A stretch of 64,000 bases of DNA, taken from the sequence record MW882907. One strand, 5' to 3'. This stretch comes from Escherichia phage vB_EcoM_SQ17. Position 1 is the first letter of the stretch, and each line of letters begins with the position of its first letter. Of this stretch, positions 2,380 through 8,609 are shown in pieces. The notes under the pieces are model-generated. The model saw only the letters and a list, made by a program, of their open reading frames with translations, had not been told where the DNA came from and made no database searches. Position numbers and translations under genes: made by a program.

Positions 2380-2409
2380 ATTATACCATATTAACACTTA
2401 AGCGTAAAC
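2380..2409 (-). promoter_or_regulatory. T4-type early promoter (GTTTAC -35, 18 nt, TATAAT -10)
   Basis: minus-strand GTTTAC ... TATAAT ~30 nt upstream of IPIII-like start. Confidence 0.6.
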
Positions 2410-2412
2410 AAT

Positions 2413-2673
2413 TTAAGCTTTACCGCCAGAAATAATTCCGAAGTTGTTAAAATCGTATCCAATATCGTCAACATCTACTTTAGGGCTTGCTACAACATAA
2501 GCAATTTCACTACGTTTTGCATAGGTGTTGATTTCTTTACCATCGCCACCTAAGAAAAAATACCCATTACGTTTTAATGAGCCAAAGTCTTCCGCATCAC
2601 CAATGAAAGCTTTAACTTTAAATTTAGGACCTTTGGCATCTGCTTCAATGATAAATTCTTGATACATTTTCAT
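2413..2673 (-). CDS. internal protein (IP)-like
   Basis: N-terminus MKMYQEFIIEA leader. Confidence 0.55.
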   Translation of the reverse strand: MKMYQEFIIEADAKGPKFKVKAFIGDAEDFGSLKRNGYFFLGGDGKEINTYAKRSEIAYVVASPKVDVDDIGYDFNNFGIISGGKA

Positions 2674-2679
2674 TTTTCC

Positions 2680-3093
2680 TTAGTAAATTGATTTACCATA
2701 GTATTTGTACCAAGTAGGACGTTGAGCAATTTTTTCGTCTAAACGTGCTTGACTTATCGCAATGGACGCTTCGGACGGGACATAATTATTACGAAATTCG
2801 GCAGGGATGTCGGAAATATCCTGGACAGTCGTGTCCTTGATTTTGAAACCACGTTTCAAACATTCAGCGATTAGCTCGATTTGTCGTAAACGTAAAAATT
2901 CGAGTTTGTCGTAAAAGAATGTTACGTGACCTGTGCCTAAGATAAATGTTGGAGAGATTTTAAAATCCTTTACACGTTTACCGTTTTGAACATGTTTACG
3001 GACTGCACCAAATACGCGTGGTAATTCACGATACTCAGCCATAAGATGTTGGTCGGTCAGTTCAGAAACAAGTGTTAAATTGATACGAGTCAT
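2680..3093 (-). CDS. denV: endonuclease V, pyrimidine dimer DNA glycosylase
   Basis: [12 protein letters not shown]...[12 protein letters not shown]...[19 protein letters not shown] near-identical to T4 DenV from memory; internal Met start. Confidence 0.9.
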
Positions 3094-3151
3094 AAGTTCC
3101 TCCAAGTAGTTGATGAATGTATAGTATCAAAACCCTTGGAGGAAGTAAACA

Positions 3152-3433
3152 CTATTTTTCTGAAGCGCCTGAAATATATTTTTCAAGACGTTGTTTCATC
3201 AGCGAGCCGTTCTTAGCGATTTCTTCCGGTTTATCACACATACGCAACAAGGCTTCAAGCTTAACGATATCGCTGGTACGTTCAAATTTGCGAGTATCTA
3301 TCTTACTAGCAAGTTCAGAAATACGTGCTAATAGACTTTCGGCTTCAACCAAAGCTGCACCTAGCTTAGTTGCAAAGGTGTCAGTAGCTTCGTTAAGAAT
3401 AGATTCTGATAAAAATTCACTATATGTTTTCAT
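3152..3433 (-). CDS. internal protein (IP)-like
   Basis: Internal Met start gives [10 protein letters not shown] leader; sits between denV and e where T4 has ipII/ipIII. Confidence 0.55.
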
Positions 3434-3918
3434 ATATACGCTTTCCAAGTTCCTGTTTTAAATGTTGAGATTACGCGTTTCGCGCGATTAGGTGTCTGAC
3501 GATACCACTTAGATTGGGCTAGATTTACTGCCGCTTCGTCCCAACGTTTCTGTTGAAGCATACGAAGAGAATTAGTAAAACCAGCGACGCCTGCTACACC
3601 CATTTGGAAGACCATATTGACCAATGCACATCGACGAACTGCATCTAAAGAATCATATACCGGTTTAAGTTTAGCATTACCCAAGATTCCGCGAACAGCT
3701 TTATCAACATCTTCATTAAATAACTTTTCAGCCTCATCAAGGGTAATTGTACCGTTGCATTTACGTCCGATCATTCTGTCAAGTTCAGCTTTAGCTACGG
3801 CTAAAGACGGGTTCTTTGTTACTAAATGGCCTATGCCAATCGTCCAAAAGCCTTCAGTGTCTTTGTATAAAGACAGTCTAAGACCTTCGTCATTACGAAG
3901 CATTTCAAATATATTCAT
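3430..3918 (-). CDS. e: lysozyme (endolysin)
   Basis: [27 protein letters not shown] ... RAKRVI.TF.TGTW ~80% identical to T4 lysozyme from memory. Confidence 0.92.
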
Positions 3919-3952
3919 AATACCTCCCACGTTTATAGGAGGTATTTATTAC

Positions 3953-4411
3953 TTATAGGATGGTAGTGAGCACCTTATATAATGATTTGCCCATTACATA
4001 TTCCCATTGAGAAGGTTTAATTAAAGCGAATGCATCAAATTCAGGAATCTGTCGTCCGTCTGGGAACGTATGATAGGAATTACAAACACTGTTTCTGAAT
4101 TGCTCGTGCTCTACAGGGATGGTATATAAGAACAGATGAATATTCTTATTGTCTGAGTAATGATGATCACCTAGGTCTTTCAGGAAGGCAGGGTCATATT
4201 GTGTAAACCCGGTTTCTTCTTCGCATTCACGAATAGCGGCTTCGATAGGAGATTCGCCGGGCTCGACACGACCTTTAGGAATATCCCACCGATGAGCTAA
4301 AGAACCTTTAGGACGAGAACCAGTTACACGCCCCATGAATAATTCTTTATCTTCGGTAAGGAAAATAATACCAGCTGATAGTTCTTTCACTTTATTTTTC
4401 TTACTCATCAT
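3953..4411 (-). CDS. nudE: Nudix hydrolase
   Basis: Nudix box GRVEPGESPIEAAIRECEEETGF; position downstream of e as in T4; start uncertain among three Met. Confidence 0.8.
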   Translation of the reverse strand: MMSKKNKVKELSAGIIFLTEDKELFMGRVTGSRPKGSLAHRWDIPKGRVEPGESPIEAAIRECEEETGFTQYDPAFLKDLGDHHYSDNKNIHLFLYTIPVEHEQFRNSVCNSYHTFPDGRQIPEFDAFALIKPSQWEYVMGKSLYKVLTTIL

Positions 4412-4806
4412 CTCAAATTCCTGCATTCGGTAATAAAACGTTCAACTTCATTATTCTTGGCCTTTATCTTGTCTTTATGTTCTTGTAAACTACTTTTAAT
4501 AAGATTAATAATGATGGCAGCGGTACCGCCGCCAATGATGCCACCAACAACACTTATGATAATAGATGCTAATAAGATAGCAATAATATCAACAAAACCG
4601 AAAGAACTCACCTTAGTACTGAAAAACCATATAGACGGTACAAATATAATCCATCCTGTTATCCATTGACACTTATTGAAAAACTTTTCAAGCTCAGCTT
4701 GAGTTGTTCGTATTACTTCATCGATAGGTTGATATCCATTAATGTATCTGTTCACGATAATACCTGCTGGCTGGTCGATTTTAAATTCTTGGCAAATACG
4801 TTTCAC
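4408..4806 (-). CDS. membrane protein, function unknown
   Basis: Two hydrophobic segments (WITGWIIFVPSIWFF; IIAILLASIIISVVGGIIGGG); C-terminal ERFITECR tail. Confidence 0.4.
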   Translation of the reverse strand: MKRICQEFKIDQPAGIIVNRYINGYQPIDEVIRTTQAELEKFFNKCQWITGWIIFVPSIWFFSTKVSSFGFVDIIAILLASIIISVVGGIIGGGTAAIIINLIKSSLQEHKDKIKAKNNEVERFITECRNLR

Positions 4807-4887
4807 TAAGTAGGATGGACATCCTGTCCAATCTACTGAATAGTATGAAATACCTTCATTGATTAGACCAATATGTTTTGTTAATCA

Positions 4888-5574
4888 TTACCAGCCTTCC
4901 ATAGGGAATTCCAGATAAACTTGAGCATTGACACGAATTTCATTGGTAATCTTTTTAACTCGGTCTGTATTACGAGATACACGTCCGAACCAACGCCATC
5001 CATTACTAATTGCACGAGAACCAGTGTGCCATGTTTGCCAATCAAACTGAAGAAGAGTACGATCTGGAGCTTCCCATTTCTCTAGTTCACCTTTTTCAAT
5101 TTTTTCGAGGACTTCTTTGTGCCACTGACGATAGATAAGTTCGCCATCAGGAATCTGACTGAACTCTGCAGTTCCTGTTGCAAAATGAGTAGGACACACG
5201 TCAGCGTTAACAAGACCAAGAATATGTTCAGACAAATAGCGAGGATTGTCATAATCAGGTTGTCCTGCAGTAATAAAGTGTTGACCAACTGGAATATCAG
5301 GGCGTGGTACATCATCATGGTGATATCCAGGAATAGCAGGATACCAACCAGGCATCAGCATGTGGACTCGTGAATCAAATACTACATCAGAGTCTTTCCA
5401 ATCGTCAGGAAGATTTTGGATAAAGCTACGAGTAATTGGGCCGCCATTATCAAAAGCAAAATTCAAATCGCAGTTAAAGAACATAGGCTCGTTTTTAATC
5501 TGGTCGTTTTTAATCGCATGAGCAAAACCACCTACTGCACGAGCTTGACTATTAAACACTTTAGAACTATTCAT
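4888..5574 (-). CDS. hypothetical protein (His/Asp-rich, possible metal-dependent enzyme)
   Basis: 228-aa ORF, tight spacing with neighbours; PGYHHDDVP and CPTHFATG motifs; no secure family assignment. Confidence 0.4.
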   Translation of the reverse strand: MNSSKVFNSQARAVGGFAHAIKNDQIKNEPMFFNCDLNFAFDNGGPITRSFIQNLPDDWKDSDVVFDSRVHMLMPGWYPAIPGYHHDDVPRPDIPVGQHFITAGQPDYDNPRYLSEHILGLVNADVCPTHFATGTAEFSQIPDGELIYRQWHKEVLEKIEKGELEKWEAPDRTLLQFDWQTWHTGSRAISNGWRWFGRVSRNTDRVKKITNEIRVNAQVYLEFPMEGW

Positions 5575-5575
5575 A

Positions 5576-5881
5576 TTATTTTCCTCGACATTCTTTAATG
5601 AAATTTTCTAGATTGGTAGATTCAATAGCTTTTTTACGAGCTTCCGCGTGTTCTTCTTCAGACAATTTACGTTTATAATTGACCCAGACATTATGGTCGA
5701 AACTAGTCGTGGCATATAATAACAATGCTCCAACGAATAGCAAAAACGGCGATAAGAATACAAAACCAGGAACACCATCCATATCGTAAGCCTTTTGTAA
5801 TACTGCAACAGAAAGAGCTGCGTAAAAAGGTGATGCAAATATTGTTAAAAGACCGATTCGATTGGTTTCTGTTAATTTCAT
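5576..5881 (-). CDS. small membrane protein, function unknown
   Basis: Two hydrophobic segments; C-terminal NFIKECR tail similar to the ORF at 4408-4806; early promoter directly upstream. Confidence 0.4.
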   Translation of the reverse strand: MKLTETNRIGLLTIFASPFYAALSVAVLQKAYDMDGVPGFVFLSPFLLFVGALLLYATTSFDHNVWVNYKRKLSEEEHAEARKKAIESTNLENFIKECRGK

Positions 5882-5909
5882 AATATTCTCCTCATGTTTT
5901 AATAGGACT

Positions 5910-5940
5910 ACTATAACATAGTCCCTATAATTGTGTAAAC
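5910..5940 (-). promoter_or_regulatory. T4-type early promoter
   Basis: minus-strand GTTTAC then ~17 nt then TTATAG upstream of 5576-5881 start. Confidence 0.55.
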
Positions 5941-5952
5941 AGTTTTGTGAAG

Positions 5953-6909
5953 TTATTTGAAAGGTTTTACCATATGGAAATTTTGTTTGAAACGTTTGAC
6001 GTAATCGTCATGTCCTAAGCTTTGGTACATACTTACTACTTTGCTGTAGTTTTCCCAGGCATACTCACGGAACCAACCAGAGGTGATGCTTGTGCAGACT
6101 TTTTCCAATGCCATCATGAAACTGGCTTCAGGGTTAATTTTAAAGTCATTAGGAATTTGAGAACGTTCTAATGCTAGTACACATGATTCTTCGTATACAC
6201 CGGCCAATTTGACCATTTCTGGTAATGATTCAAACTTCTCGCGTGAGGTCATGACTTCAGAACCGTCTTTCATATAAAATGTATACGCTGGACAGTCTGT
6301 TAGTGCAATGGCTTCATGAATAGTATCATGGTCATATGTATAGATGTCATCTTTAAAGAACGCACTTTTAGAAGTGTCAAGAACCGGGTGAGCATAGTTC
6401 AAGGTTTCTTTCTGGCGTTTCAGCATAATTTCAGTAAGTTCATCGTTCAGTGTAACACCTTTACCACGAAGATACTGAATATGGTTCATAGTCTTTAAAA
6501 AGAATGGATTATTTTTCTTGAAACGATGAGACATCTTAATGGCAAGACATATCTCAGGAGTTGCCCAGTAAAACCCGTTCAAACGGTCTTTAGTCAAATT
6601 TTTCTTGGCGTATTTTAAAAGGCCATAAGAAGACGTGAAATCTTCAGGAGTGAGTTCACCGACTAATTCACGGACATTAGTGATTGCCGGAACAATATAT
6701 GCTTCAAAATGAGTTTCGCGTCCATTATGGAAGCATTTGAAAACTTGGACATCAGGGTTATCTTGATGAACATATACACCCATCATTTGATTTTTGAATG
6801 CATTCCAAGAACCTTGGTCTGCAATAAAGTCCCAGTCACTATTTTTGATAGCGTTAGAATCAATAAGACCATGATAGTGAAGTGCACGAGAACCAATAAC
6901 TAACATCAT
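5953..6909 (-). CDS. hypothetical protein, possible nucleotidyltransferase-fold motif
   Basis: 318-aa ORF; N-terminal LVIGSRALHYHGL...NSDWDFI loosely fits the GS...DxD nucleotidyltransferase signature (spacing longer than typical). Confidence 0.45.
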   Translation of the reverse strand: MMLVIGSRALHYHGLIDSNAIKNSDWDFIADQGSWNAFKNQMMGVYVHQDNPDVQVFKCFHNGRETHFEAYIVPAITNVRELVGELTPEDFTSSYGLLKYAKKNLTKDRLNGFYWATPEICLAIKMSHRFKKNNPFFLKTMNHIQYLRGKGVTLNDELTEIMLKRQKETLNYAHPVLDTSKSAFFKDDIYTYDHDTIHEAIALTDCPAYTFYMKDGSEVMTSREKFESLPEMVKLAGVYEESCVLALERSQIPNDFKINPEASFMMALEKVCTSITSGWFREYAWENYSKVVSMYQSLGHDDYVKRFKQNFHMVKPFK

Positions 6910-6933
6910 AATATTTTCCTCGGATTAATTAAC

Positions 6934-7185
6934 TTAAATTTCACGACATGCGATATCATATTCATCCCAGAGGTCATCATGTGAAGCCTCTACCAATGGA
7001 ACGATTGTACCATTTATGTCTTCGTTATAAGGGCAAATTGTACAGTGTGCATCTTCAAATCGGATGCCTTTGTGTTCAGATTTTTTATAACGCATATCGA
7101 ATATCTTTGCAAACTTTTCACGAGTAATGGTTTTAGCAACCACTTCGGTTCCGATACTTTCGTAATAAATCATTGTGGACTCCAT
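6934..7185 (-). CDS. hypothetical small protein
   Basis: 83-aa ORF with CTIC..H..C residues; early promoter upstream. Confidence 0.35.
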   Translation of the reverse strand: MESTMIYYESIGTEVVAKTITREKFAKIFDMRYKKSEHKGIRFEDAHCTICPYNEDINGTIVPLVEASHDDLWDEYDIACREI

Positions 7186-7194
7186 TTAATTTGA

Positions 7195-7235
7195 TAGGAC
7201 TACTATAACATAGCCCTATCTTGTTGTAAACTGTT
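7195..7235 (-). promoter_or_regulatory. T4-type early promoter
   Basis: minus-strand GTTTAC ... TATAGT element, same repeat family as other early promoters in the window; coordinates approximate. Confidence 0.5.
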
Positions 7236-7433
7236 TTAGCAAGAATAACTAGATGATACCCAGCCTTGAACAGTAATGCTATTATTGGATAATGAGATCG
7301 CGTCCTGGAGATTCAGACCTGCGTTATCTTCAATCCACAATGTAACTTCTTCGCGTTCTTCTGTTGCAATTTGGAACAGGTTTTCCAGAGCAGCTACTGC
7401 CGTACGTACAGCACAATCTAATTCACGAGACAT
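7236..7433 (-). CDS. hypothetical small protein, C-terminal GWVSSSxxC family
   Basis: 65-aa ORF ending ...SITVQGWVSSSYSC; paralog of the adjacent ORF. Confidence 0.4.
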   Translation of the reverse strand: MSRELDCAVRTAVAALENLFQIATEEREEVTLWIEDNAGLNLQDAISLSNNSITVQGWVSSSYSC

Positions 7434-7442
7434 ATGGTTTCC

Positions 7443-7715
7443 TTAGCAAGTGTGAGAAGATGCAATCCAACCACCAGTTTCGAGGCTCAGGTTGTAGTCG
7501 TATTGGTAAACGTCAGCCCATTCGGCATAGCCGTTTTTTGTACAACGTTCAAGATCGGCTTTAAGTTGTCCGGGTGAATGATAGGTTCCACCCATACCAT
7601 AAGCTGGATACAAGTTGAATGTTGTGTTTTGTTTATCAGCAATTTCTTTGGCAGCCTCAATAGCTGCATAGATTTTTGCTACGGCTTCAGCCAGTTCGGT
7701 TTGTTCTTTAGACAT
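7443..7715 (-). CDS. hypothetical small protein, C-terminal GWxxSSxxC family
   Basis: 90-aa ORF ending ...GGWIASSHTC; same 3' junction architecture as neighbour. Confidence 0.4.
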   Translation of the reverse strand: MSKEQTELAEAVAKIYAAIEAAKEIADKQNTTFNLYPAYGMGGTYHSPGQLKADLERCTKNGYAEWADVYQYDYNLSLETGGWIASSHTC

Positions 7716-7724
7716 AATGATTCC

Positions 7725-7778
7725 TTAGCACATCGCAGAAGACGAAACCCAAGCACCTTTGGTAATAGAGGGTATGAA
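7725..7778 (-). pseudogene. 3' remnant of a third GWVSSSxxC-family gene
   Basis: Minus-strand reading gives ...FIPSITKGAWVSSSAMC-stop with an in-frame stop just upstream and no start; same stop-RBS-ATG junction as the intact paralogs. Confidence 0.35.
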
Positions 7779-7798
7779 TTAATAATAACACATAATTC

Positions 7799-8314
7799 TT
7801 AAAGCAAATCAATCATTTTAACGGTTGGCAAAACGATTTCTTCTTCAATATAAGCAAATTCGACACGTTCAACTACACGCAAGAAATCATAATCATAATA
7901 TTCAGAAGCATGGCCAAGAATATCAGTGAGACCTTCTGATACCAAATATCCATTCTCACGGAACAGGTCAAATACACGTGATTCGTCTTCTTCAGATTTA
8001 TTACCGAGGTCGACTTCAATATCAAAGACCTTTTTAATGAATTCTGGATAAAGCTGGTCCGAGAACAGTCCTTCAACCAAGTATTCATAGATTAAAAGCG
8101 AGCAATCACTGAATAGTGTATTACCACAGTAACGTTCAGCTTTAGTACTAGAATGACGACTCTTAAATTTCTTCAAGAGATATTTAAACTGTTGGATCTC
8201 ATGCTCTTCTACACCAAATAATGTTTTGGTTTTATAATTGTCGCCATCATTTTCCCAAGTAGTGACATCAATTACGTAACCTTTAGGAATTGTACTGCCT
8301 AAACAAATATTCAT
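7799..8314 (-). CDS. hypothetical protein
   Basis: 171-aa ORF, acidic; no recognisable motif. Confidence 0.4.
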   Translation of the reverse strand: MNICLGSTIPKGYVIDVTTWENDGDNYKTKTLFGVEEHEIQQFKYLLKKFKSRHSSTKAERYCGNTLFSDCSLLIYEYLVEGLFSDQLYPEFIKKVFDIEVDLGNKSEEDESRVFDLFRENGYLVSEGLTDILGHASEYYDYDFLRVVERVEFAYIEEEIVLPTVKMIDLL

Positions 8315-8318
8315 TTAC

Positions 8319-8609
8319 TCACCGTACCATATTAATGTAATTATATTCAATGCAACGCAATTTCAAAGGATTCTTGAAAATATCATATTCAAGAGGGCCT
8401 TTTTCTGTTTCAATAAAGAAATCAAAGTTAACTGTGTTAAATTTACCATCTTCACAGAGTAATTTAACCTGTGAAGACGAACGGTCGATATAAACCTTTT
8501 CAACTTCAAAAATAGTCAAAATACCATAGTCATCGACCAGTGCTTTAGCTGCACGTTGATCGCTTTCATATCCATTCTCGACAGATTTTACTTTAGCATA
8601 AAGAATCAT
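8319..8609 (-). CDS. hypothetical protein
   Basis: 96-aa ORF in operon-like spacing. Confidence 0.35.
   Translation of the reverse strand: MILYAKVKSVENGYESDQRAAKALVDDYGILTIFEVEKVYIDRSSSQVKLLCEDGKFNTVNFDFFIETEKGPLEYDIFKNPLKLRCIEYNYINMVR

Follow-up and report, generated by a model that had tools for sequence, protein, structure and literature searches.

T4-like cyanophages carry genes for uncharacterised PhyH-domain or 2-oxoglutarate (2OG)-Fe(II) oxygenases, which have been proposed, though not shown, to draw down 2OG or to repair DNA (Sullivan et al. 2010, PMC3037559). We analysed a stretch of 64,000 nucleotides (nt) from Escherichia phage vB_EcoM_SQ17 (sequence record MW882907; the whole stretch is called the window here), in which the gene for a soluble 228-residue protein, a predicted Fe(II)/2OG dioxygenase, stands between two open reading frames (ORFs) for small membrane proteins. 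This predicted enzyme and the cyanophage oxygenases are both products of accessory genes of T4-type myoviruses, but they differ in sequence family, hosts and genomic neighbourhood. The PhyH-type enzymes EctD, EasH, proline hydroxylase H11 and human phytanoyl-CoA hydroxylase are longer than the phage-borne protein and 9-17% identical to it, with TM-scores of 0.35-0.42, and viral PhyH/2OG entries in the BFVD structure library show a weak fold similarity to it (E 1e-3 to 3e-2).

The two membrane ORFs can be compared with products of T4 genes. The ORF downstream of the enzyme gene and T4/RB69 e.2 (PHROG 2203; precomputed Pfam assignment PF26896) occupy the same position directly upstream of nudE, and the window and T4 copies are cut in opposite ways: the window e.2 loses its N-terminal end through an 11-nt deletion, whereas T4 e.2 stops after its first transmembrane (TM) segment, TM1. 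The upstream ORF encodes a 101-residue protein that resembles T4 e.3 (PHROG 2330) and APCEc01_164 in size (101-120 residues), in its two TM segments and in its charged tail, but it is placed in a separate family, PHROG 9798. T4 Imm, too, is a small membrane protein made early, and it contains two hydrophobic segments. The window ORFs share no sequence similarity with T4 Imm or Sp, lie at another genomic location and, unlike them, end in a C-terminal F-I-x-E-C-R tail. About 240 phage records matched the region 4300-6000, and the best of them, at 95-98% identity, are all from Mosigvirus, which assigns the window to a Mosigvirus (T4-like, Tevenvirinae) genome. The bracketing of the predicted dioxygenase by two membrane ORFs looks like local gene order and not like a three-part machine.

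A predicted dioxygenase fold in the 228-residue protein

A first-pass annotation of the window had guessed that the central protein is a metal-dependent enzyme and had named the cupin and 2OG-oxygenase folds as ones to look for, an expectation that structure prediction bore out. An AlphaFold model built from an alignment of 109 diverse homologues (31-83% identical to the query) reached a predicted local distance difference test score (pLDDT) of 95.4 and a predicted template modelling score (pTM) of 0.91, and in it the protein is predicted to fold as a double-stranded beta-helix (jelly-roll) 2OG/Fe(II) dioxygenase. The top Foldseek matches of the model were PhyH-type enzymes (probability 0.99), and AlkB-type enzymes scored below both the PhyH-type and the prolyl-hydroxylase-type. 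The nearest entries in BFVD were uncharacterised members of the same family, followed by the viral PhyH/2OG proteins. The protein contains 3.9% His and 7.9% Asp, and the Wimley-White octanol scale located no TM segment in it.

Residue conservation across the 109 homologues agrees with this assignment. H85 is present in all of them and D87 and H183 in 108 each; R194 is again found in every homologue, R198 in 108 and Ser or Thr at position 200 in 105, and R91, R198 and R214 count among the several invariant arginines of the family. This H-x-D ... H ... R pattern is the signature of Fe(II)/2OG dioxygenases. H85, D87 and H183 are the predicted Fe(II) ligands (an HxD...H facial triad), and R194, together with R198 and S200, would bind the C5 carboxylate of 2OG. 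The earlier idea that two His/Asp clusters coordinate a metal held for PGYHHDDVP, which contains H85 and D87. It failed for CPTHFATG, in which just 5 of the 109 homologues retain the His; the third ligand is predicted to be H183, within WQTWHTG. H183 and R194 lie 11 residues apart. The distal His-to-Arg spacing of phytanoyl-CoA hydroxylase is likewise 11 (H264 to R275), whereas the corresponding AlkB residues are H187 and R204.

A search of a database of 5.8 billion sequences at E<=1e-3 returned 1294 matches to the enzyme, with 625 representatives at 50% clustering. The family is PHROG 1843, labelled 'unknown function'. Searches of Pfam, NCBIfam, PADLOC and PDB sequences, with the single sequence or with the 109-sequence profile, gave nothing significant. 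The Pfam profile for PhyH (PF05721) did not match the window protein at E up to 0.1, and its best result among the homologues was a single one of the 109 at E 0.068. Since the protein has the fold, the facial triad and the 2OG-binding Arg of the superfamily and fails to match the PhyH profile, we file it as a divergent superfamily member, PhyH-like in shape, and not as a member of the PhyH family. A few public records already name the gene as a '2OG-Fe(II) oxygenase' or a 'phytanoyl-CoA dioxygenase', and in most it is listed as hypothetical. The 228-residue product would catalyse an O2-driven hydroxylation or other oxidation. By analogy, its substrate is most likely a small molecule or an amino-acid side chain, because both the His-to-Arg spacing and the nearest folds are PhyH-like.

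Two small membrane proteins and a frameshifted e.2 gene

Both flanking ORFs, like the gene between them, were found at the stated coordinates, on the minus strand, and each contains two TM segments, as had been claimed. On the same hydrophobicity scale, the best windows were residues 11-29 and 40-58 of the 101-residue protein and residues 46-64 and 69-87 of the 132-residue downstream ORF, in which the second segment runs to about residue 103 through a Gly-rich stretch. The 101-residue protein continues into a 40-residue charged tail ending NFIKECRGK, and the 132-residue ORF comprises half of the N-terminal domain, its pair of TM segments and a basic tail whose last residues are RFITECRNLR. In both proteins the short loop between the helices is nearly uncharged and the long C-terminal tail carries 8-9 Lys/Arg, a distribution of charge that suggests two-helix hairpins with both ends in the cytoplasm.

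The downstream ORF matched PHROG 2203 at 1.4e-35 over profile positions 33-166 of 166. It also matched, at 1.7e-30, a hidden Markov model (HMM) that we derived from the C-terminal half of each of 14 diverse e.2 proteins and ran against a database of 5,491 ORFs. Its full-length relative in S143_2, the nearest record (98% DNA identity to the window across the region), is 84% identical to the RB69 'e.2 conserved hypothetical, predicted membrane protein'. These matches point firmly to a homologue of T4/RB69 e.2. In S143_2, NRG-P0074, mogra and APCEc01, e.2 encodes 163 residues from an ATG that overlaps the enzyme stop, and the full-length protein starts MINKTYWSNIDDG(D/N)EGISYYSVDWTGCPSYLVK. Alignments with FL18, NRG-P0074, mogra, S143_2, LF82-4 and JK45 showed that 11 nt (ATAGACGATGG) are gone from the window after TCTAAT, between 4862 and 4861. 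As a result, the ATG at 4888 yields only MINKTYWSNQ before a stop, and the remainder of e.2 lies in another frame, in which the first possible start is a GTG at 4806 without a Shine-Dalgarno sequence. The W..DDGD.GI...VDW.GC motif of the N-terminus and its coupled start are absent, and the ORF is an incomplete gene, only the 3' part of e.2. LF82-4 has the identical 11-nt gap, and in JK45 13 nt are missing at that point; a nearby deletion of 12 nt in FL18 is in frame, and e.2 is intact there. Versions of e.2 with 132 residues are annotated in LF82-4, JK45, phi25-307 and FL31. Because the same lesion is found in other phages, it is real and recurrent and not a sequencing error. The upstream ORF has an ATG with a Shine-Dalgarno sequence (GAGGAG) 7 nt before it.

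The likeliest of the rival explanations is that the downstream ORF is a dead remnant, so that the 'pair' in the window would be one functional membrane gene plus debris, and we give this somewhat less than even odds. The 11-nt deletion removed the coupled start, the GTG is the sole in-frame start left, and every truncated e.2 allele is closest to some full-length allele, which suggests recent events. On the other hand, 132-residue ORFs are open in several phages and in metagenome clusters (P0286-P0291), and the ratio of nonsynonymous to synonymous polymorphism (pN/pS) between truncated alleles is 0.17-0.26. Over the 3' 399 nt of e.2, pN/pS was 0.07-0.34 in nearly all pairs, the exception being NRG-P0074 versus mogra at 0.66; these ratios neither date the truncation nor separate maintained from recent alleles.

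At 67481-67960 of T4 NC_000866 (minus strand), we observed that the annotated e.2 of T4 itself (102 residues) is a nonsense-truncated gene. Its frame goes on past two in-frame stops, located after TM1, to ...IEMPWRLRRQQKIFDEKKYAQNLNNFITECRKLK, and the extended frame aligns end to end with the full-length e.2 of other phages (tblastn 5e-41). The fossil tail downstream of the stops reads NFITECRKLK. T4 e.2 matches PHROG 2203 positions 1-103 at 7.5e-42, and the nonsense truncation accounts for the unusual 161-nt 'gap' between e.2 and nudE in T4.

The first-pass annotation had called the two membrane proteins paralogous, a term that is fair for their architecture and tail. BLASTP aligned 28 residues of the two at E 0.001, and hhalign aligned 12 columns with a probability of 62%. 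The PHROG 2203 profile matched residues 19-99 of the 101-residue protein at E 3.4e-3, and the e.2 C-terminal HMM matched it at E 0.002-0.017. Homology can thus be demonstrated only over the tail of about 12 residues, and beyond the tail the support for 'paralogous' is weak. The 101-residue protein itself appears to be confined to Mosigvirus, since all 149 records of its family are at least 87% identical and come from Escherichia or Shigella phages like the matched Mosigviruses. It is a probable relative of T4 e.3-type proteins: BLASTP gave a weak match to T4 e.3 (120 residues, two TM segments, ending EFVIDCRKIK) at E 0.004 over 54 residues that cover the second TM segment and the tail, and a profile search gave no match to PHROG 2330. 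APCEc01_164, the true e.3 orthologue of some Mosigviruses, ends ENFIKECRK, near-identical to the ENFIKECRGK of the 101-residue protein; a true e.3 orthologue was looked for in the window and is absent.

In PEi20 (Kanagawavirus) and F48 (a Klebsiella T4-like phage), a lipoprotein-like ORF of 65-73 residues fills the slot upstream of the dioxygenase gene and replaces the 101-residue protein (PEi20 ORF-132 at 2293-2490 and F48 gp13 at 2269-2490 of their loci). The signal peptide of this ORF ends in Cys, and the ORF contains the conserved sequence EKTELGIT.TG.VG.RLNDVQC..M..GQIE.CLIT.E.

The likeness of the two tails, noted in the first pass, was upheld. The pattern [FWY][IVL]x[EGD]CR, at most 6 residues from the C-terminus, occurs in 2 of the 925 stop-to-stop segments of the window, exactly the two membrane ORFs, and shuffled sequence gave 0.03 matches on average. 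The relatedness of the tails (ENFIKECRGK and ERFITECRNLR) is real and not due to chance. The two copies use different codons (TTC ATT AAA GAA TGT CGA in the 101-residue gene, TTT ATT ACC GAA TGC AGG in e.2), which points to a constraint on the protein level. We rejected a role of the tail motif at the nucleotide level, for example as the Shine-Dalgarno sequence of the gene that follows or as a cassette for recombination, because the codons for F, C and R differ and because many copies have further residues after the motif. The tail also resembles the T4 capsid-targeting/gp21-protease site (EFIxE), a candidate that we set aside as the tail is C-terminal and on membrane proteins.

Similar tails are found in other phages. 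In PEi20-like phages the downstream membrane gene ends FIKGCRNGRN, Klebsiella F48-like phages have two tandem copies with the tails WIKGCRK and WVKGCRK, EAWsc9 (Gaprivervirus) and similar loci have FIEECRK, CF1-like loci have FINSCRIKR, and the motif is also present in APCEc01_163/164. In the 67 kb of T4 that we examined, a near-C-terminal F[IV]xxC[RK] occurs only in the adjacent genes e.2 (as the fossil), e.3 and e.5, with a shifted variant, FVKESRC, in e.4; none of the 245 ORFs in the first 50 kb of T4 has the motif. T4 e.5 is a soluble protein of 202 residues (ending EKFVKECREYVK....), and further soluble small ORFs of the e-tRNA region in related phages carry the same tail. The general form is [LIV]-x-x-F-[IV]-x-x-C-[RK], on membrane and soluble small early proteins. 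This tail is probably a short amphipathic C-terminal helix by which the early proteins contact one common partner; a shared docking partner is made probable by soluble T4 e.5 ending with the same tail.

Distribution of the enzyme and competing explanations

The first-pass annotation had likened the three genes to an exclusion or envelope-modifying module, and their distribution speaks against this. We assessed 80 IMG/VR loci that encode enzyme relatives (37-99% identity). In 18 of these loci, a membrane gene with the tail motif begins at the enzyme stop, and the other 62 have no tail-motif membrane neighbour. Both nudE and the e.2-like gene accompany the enzyme in precisely these 18 loci, two of which also have the upstream 101-residue gene, and the 18 make up a single synteny block, from T4-like phages that have enterobacteria as hosts in their public counterparts. 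Among the 57 most diverse enzyme loci, no neighbouring gene family is shared. The enzyme occurs without membrane partners in Aeromonas AP1, Stenotrophomonas SBP3.1phi2, Bacillus TP21T, Mycobacterium SirSheldon and Acinetobacter ABPH49. Genes e.2 and e.3 are present in T4 and in several hundred other T4-type records, and in T4 they are adjacent with no enzyme between them. A general link of the enzyme to genes for nucleoside triphosphate pyrophosphatases was also tested and found no support: nudE is restricted to the 18 synteny-block loci, and the MazG and dUTPase families were found in 0 of 80.

The reading that we favour, at a probability of about 0.62, is that the locus is a block of Mosigvirus accessory genes, transcribed early and situated in the plastic region that separates lysozyme gene e from the tRNA cluster, with two kinds of gene whose functions are probably independent. 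The 228-residue product would be a cytoplasmic non-haem Fe(II)/2OG dioxygenase that holds Fe(II) and 2OG through the residues named above and uses O2 to oxidise its substrate, and its gene, stand-alone cargo of many unrelated phages, would have inserted upstream of e.2. The flanking ORFs would encode small inner-membrane proteins of the T4 e.2/e.3 group, each a two-helix hairpin with a basic C-terminal helix that docks onto a shared partner. The window e.2 would be truncated or non-functional, its proper start and N-terminal domain having been lost with the 11-nt deletion. The bracketing would then arise from the slot upstream of e.2 and an extra, e.3-like Mosigvirus copy present there.

Several points weigh against this reading. 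In the 18 loci, which come from several enterobacterial T4-like groups, the e.2-like gene begins on the enzyme stop, as would fit a functional pair. The truncated e.2 is open in several phages at a pN/pS of about 0.2 and so may be expressed. The topology of the membrane proteins is based on hydrophobicity and charge counts only, and an AlphaFold2 model of full-length e.2 (from a 12-sequence alignment) reached a pLDDT of 35.6 and was unusable. Literature searches gave nothing relevant on a substrate, activity or partner of any of the three proteins.

Apart from the dead-remnant explanation discussed above, four alternatives were weighed. It is unlikely that the membrane ORFs alone matter, in superinfection exclusion, lysis timing (holin/antiholin-like) or membrane-targeting host takeover, with the enzyme irrelevant. 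Such roles would suit small proteins with two TM segments encoded downstream of an early-promoter-like site and beside lysozyme gene e. PHROG 2203 is placed in the category 'moron, auxiliary metabolic gene and host takeover', and a Gaprivervirus homologue is annotated 'holin' in one record; that record, however, also has implausible names for very small ORFs nearby. A BLASTP comparison with T4 Imm and Sp found nothing, Pfam (a set searched without PF26896) and NCBIfam gave no support, and PADLOC returned only weak matches at chance level, so the suggested likeness to superinfection exclusion found no support. Moreover, e.2 is repeatedly broken, by in-frame stops in T4 and by deletions of 11 or 13 nt in the window, LF82-4 and JK45, which argues against an important role in the hosts used for propagation.

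A real module, in which the membrane proteins anchor the dioxygenase to the inner membrane or control it there for action on a lipid, envelope or membrane-proximal substrate, we regard as improbable. The three genes are tightly packed, with 1 nt between the 101-residue stop and the enzyme ATG and with the enzyme stop and e.2 ATG overlapping as TAATG, and the order of enzyme and e.2-like gene is kept in the 18 loci from several enterobacterial T4-like groups. It is because this stop/start overlap is conserved that we retain the module at all. Stop/start overlaps are, however, the norm across T4-type genomes. In addition, most enzyme loci have no such neighbour, T4 has e.3 and e.2 and no enzyme, and the upstream copy is limited to Mosigvirus. 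The window e.2 is frameshifted, whereas the window enzyme is intact and matches the enzyme of FL18, a phage with an intact e.2, at 100% identity.

Action of the dioxygenase on nucleic acid, as an AlkB-like repair enzyme or in base hypermodification, is just as improbable. In other phages the gene is found among genes of nucleotide and DNA metabolism, such as those for dUTPase, RtcB, DprA and exonuclease VIII, and the invariant R91, R198 and R214 could bind phosphates. Set against this, PhyH-type and prolyl-hydroxylase-type folds outscore the AlkB-type, the His-to-Arg spacing of 11 fits PhyH and not AlkB, and TET/JBP enzymes were not among the matches listed. The hosts, namely Escherichia, Aeromonas, Mycobacterium, Gordonia and Bacillus, are a poor fit for one particular DNA hypermodification. 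Finally, we consider very unlikely a wider reading in which the tail, as a shared docking tag, marks a whole set of early proteins of the e.2-e.5 cluster, membrane-bound (e.2, e.3, e.4-like and the 101-residue protein) as well as soluble (e.5-like and several small ORFs), for one host or phage partner, and in which the coupled dioxygenase, where present, cooperates with the membrane-anchored members on a membrane-proximal substrate.

Genomic setting of the block

The minus strand carries every gene of the window from about 2400 to 8600, in the order denV, ip, e, nudE and then the three ORFs (Table 1). In the sense of transcription, the block runs from the 101-residue gene through the 228-residue gene, e.2 and nudE to lysozyme gene e, and the e.2 stop overlaps the nudE start. 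The promoter-like site is positioned just ahead of the 101-residue gene, reads GTTTACA...TGTTATAGT from 5939 to 5910 and was the top promoter match within 3800-7200, at 10 of 12 positions.

Table 1 Features of the accessory block and its surroundings in the window.
Feature	Position	Strand	Details
denV	2680-3105	minus	
Internal-protein-like gene (ip)	between denV and lysozyme e	minus	
Lysozyme e	3430-3930	minus	
NudE (e.1) Nudix hydrolase	3953-4426	minus	Pfam NUDIX 2.3e-16; PHROG 1185 3.1e-74
3' part of predicted e.2 homologue	4408-4806	minus	132 codons from GTG 4806; stop-to-stop frame 4408-4884
Remnant 5' end of e.2 gene	4856-4888	minus	MINKTYWSNQ then stop
228-residue soluble, PhyH-like divergent Fe(II)/2OG dioxygenase (predicted)	4888-5574	minus	PHROG 1843
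101-residue small membrane protein	5576-5881	minus	two TM segments; PHROG 9798
Sigma-70 (T4 early-type) promoter-like site	5910-5939	minus	TTTACA-18 nt-TATAGT with upstream TG
318-residue DUF7277 + DUF7275 protein	5953-6909	minus	Pfam 2.4e-27 (DUF7277), 2.2e-78 (DUF7275)

One record calls the 318-residue protein a 'nucleotidyltransferase'. Its gene accompanies the enzyme gene in 19 of the 80 loci, and this synteny is confined to the T4-like block. Many Mosigviruses have an additional ORF of 78 residues (PHROG 2900, unknown function) between e.2 and nudE, which is not present in the window, S143_2 or RPN187. At a junction near 7752-7767, the window is without about 4.8 kb that Mosigvirus APCEc01 contains, comprising tRNA-Met, tRNA-Arg and about ten ORFs, including e.3, e.4-like and e.5-like genes. 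A microhomology, AGCACCTT..GTAATA, is found at both APCEc01 sites of this junction, and the 3' end of an APCEc01_165-like gene (...GAWVSSSAMC and stop) is left stranded at it. A tRNA gene search of the whole 64-kb window found none.

Further minus-strand ORFs, at 7236-7433 and 7443-7715, belong to a small family of ORFs of 65-101 residues ending G.W[VI][SA]SS..C (for example ...QGWVSSSYSC and ...GGWIASSHTC), which is also represented at 4857-5444 of the APCEc01 locus. They are another set of tandem paralogues with a common C-terminal motif. Two minus-strand ORFs lie at 2413-2673 and 3152-3448, the first beginning MKMYQEFIIEA and the second annotated as an internal head protein in relatives. 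Their N-termini resemble the N-terminal capsid-targeting sequence of T4 internal proteins.

The 228-residue protein represents a divergent addition to a known superfamily, beside an already catalogued, uncharacterised T4 gene family. Its own family comprises more than 1,200 sequence clusters from phages of Proteobacteria, Actinobacteria and Firmicutes and has neither a Pfam model nor a characterised member, and its firm superfamily placement with named catalytic residues makes the predicted enzyme directly testable. Only with a substrate or partner in hand would the enzyme and tail findings change the present picture of phage biology. The most intriguing loose end of this analysis is the C-terminal motif that recurs in e.2-e.5. 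It offers a small clue to a T4 gene block that has been without an assigned role since the genome was annotated and, if the wider docking-tag reading were true, it would mark an unrecognised early host-takeover system in T-even phages.

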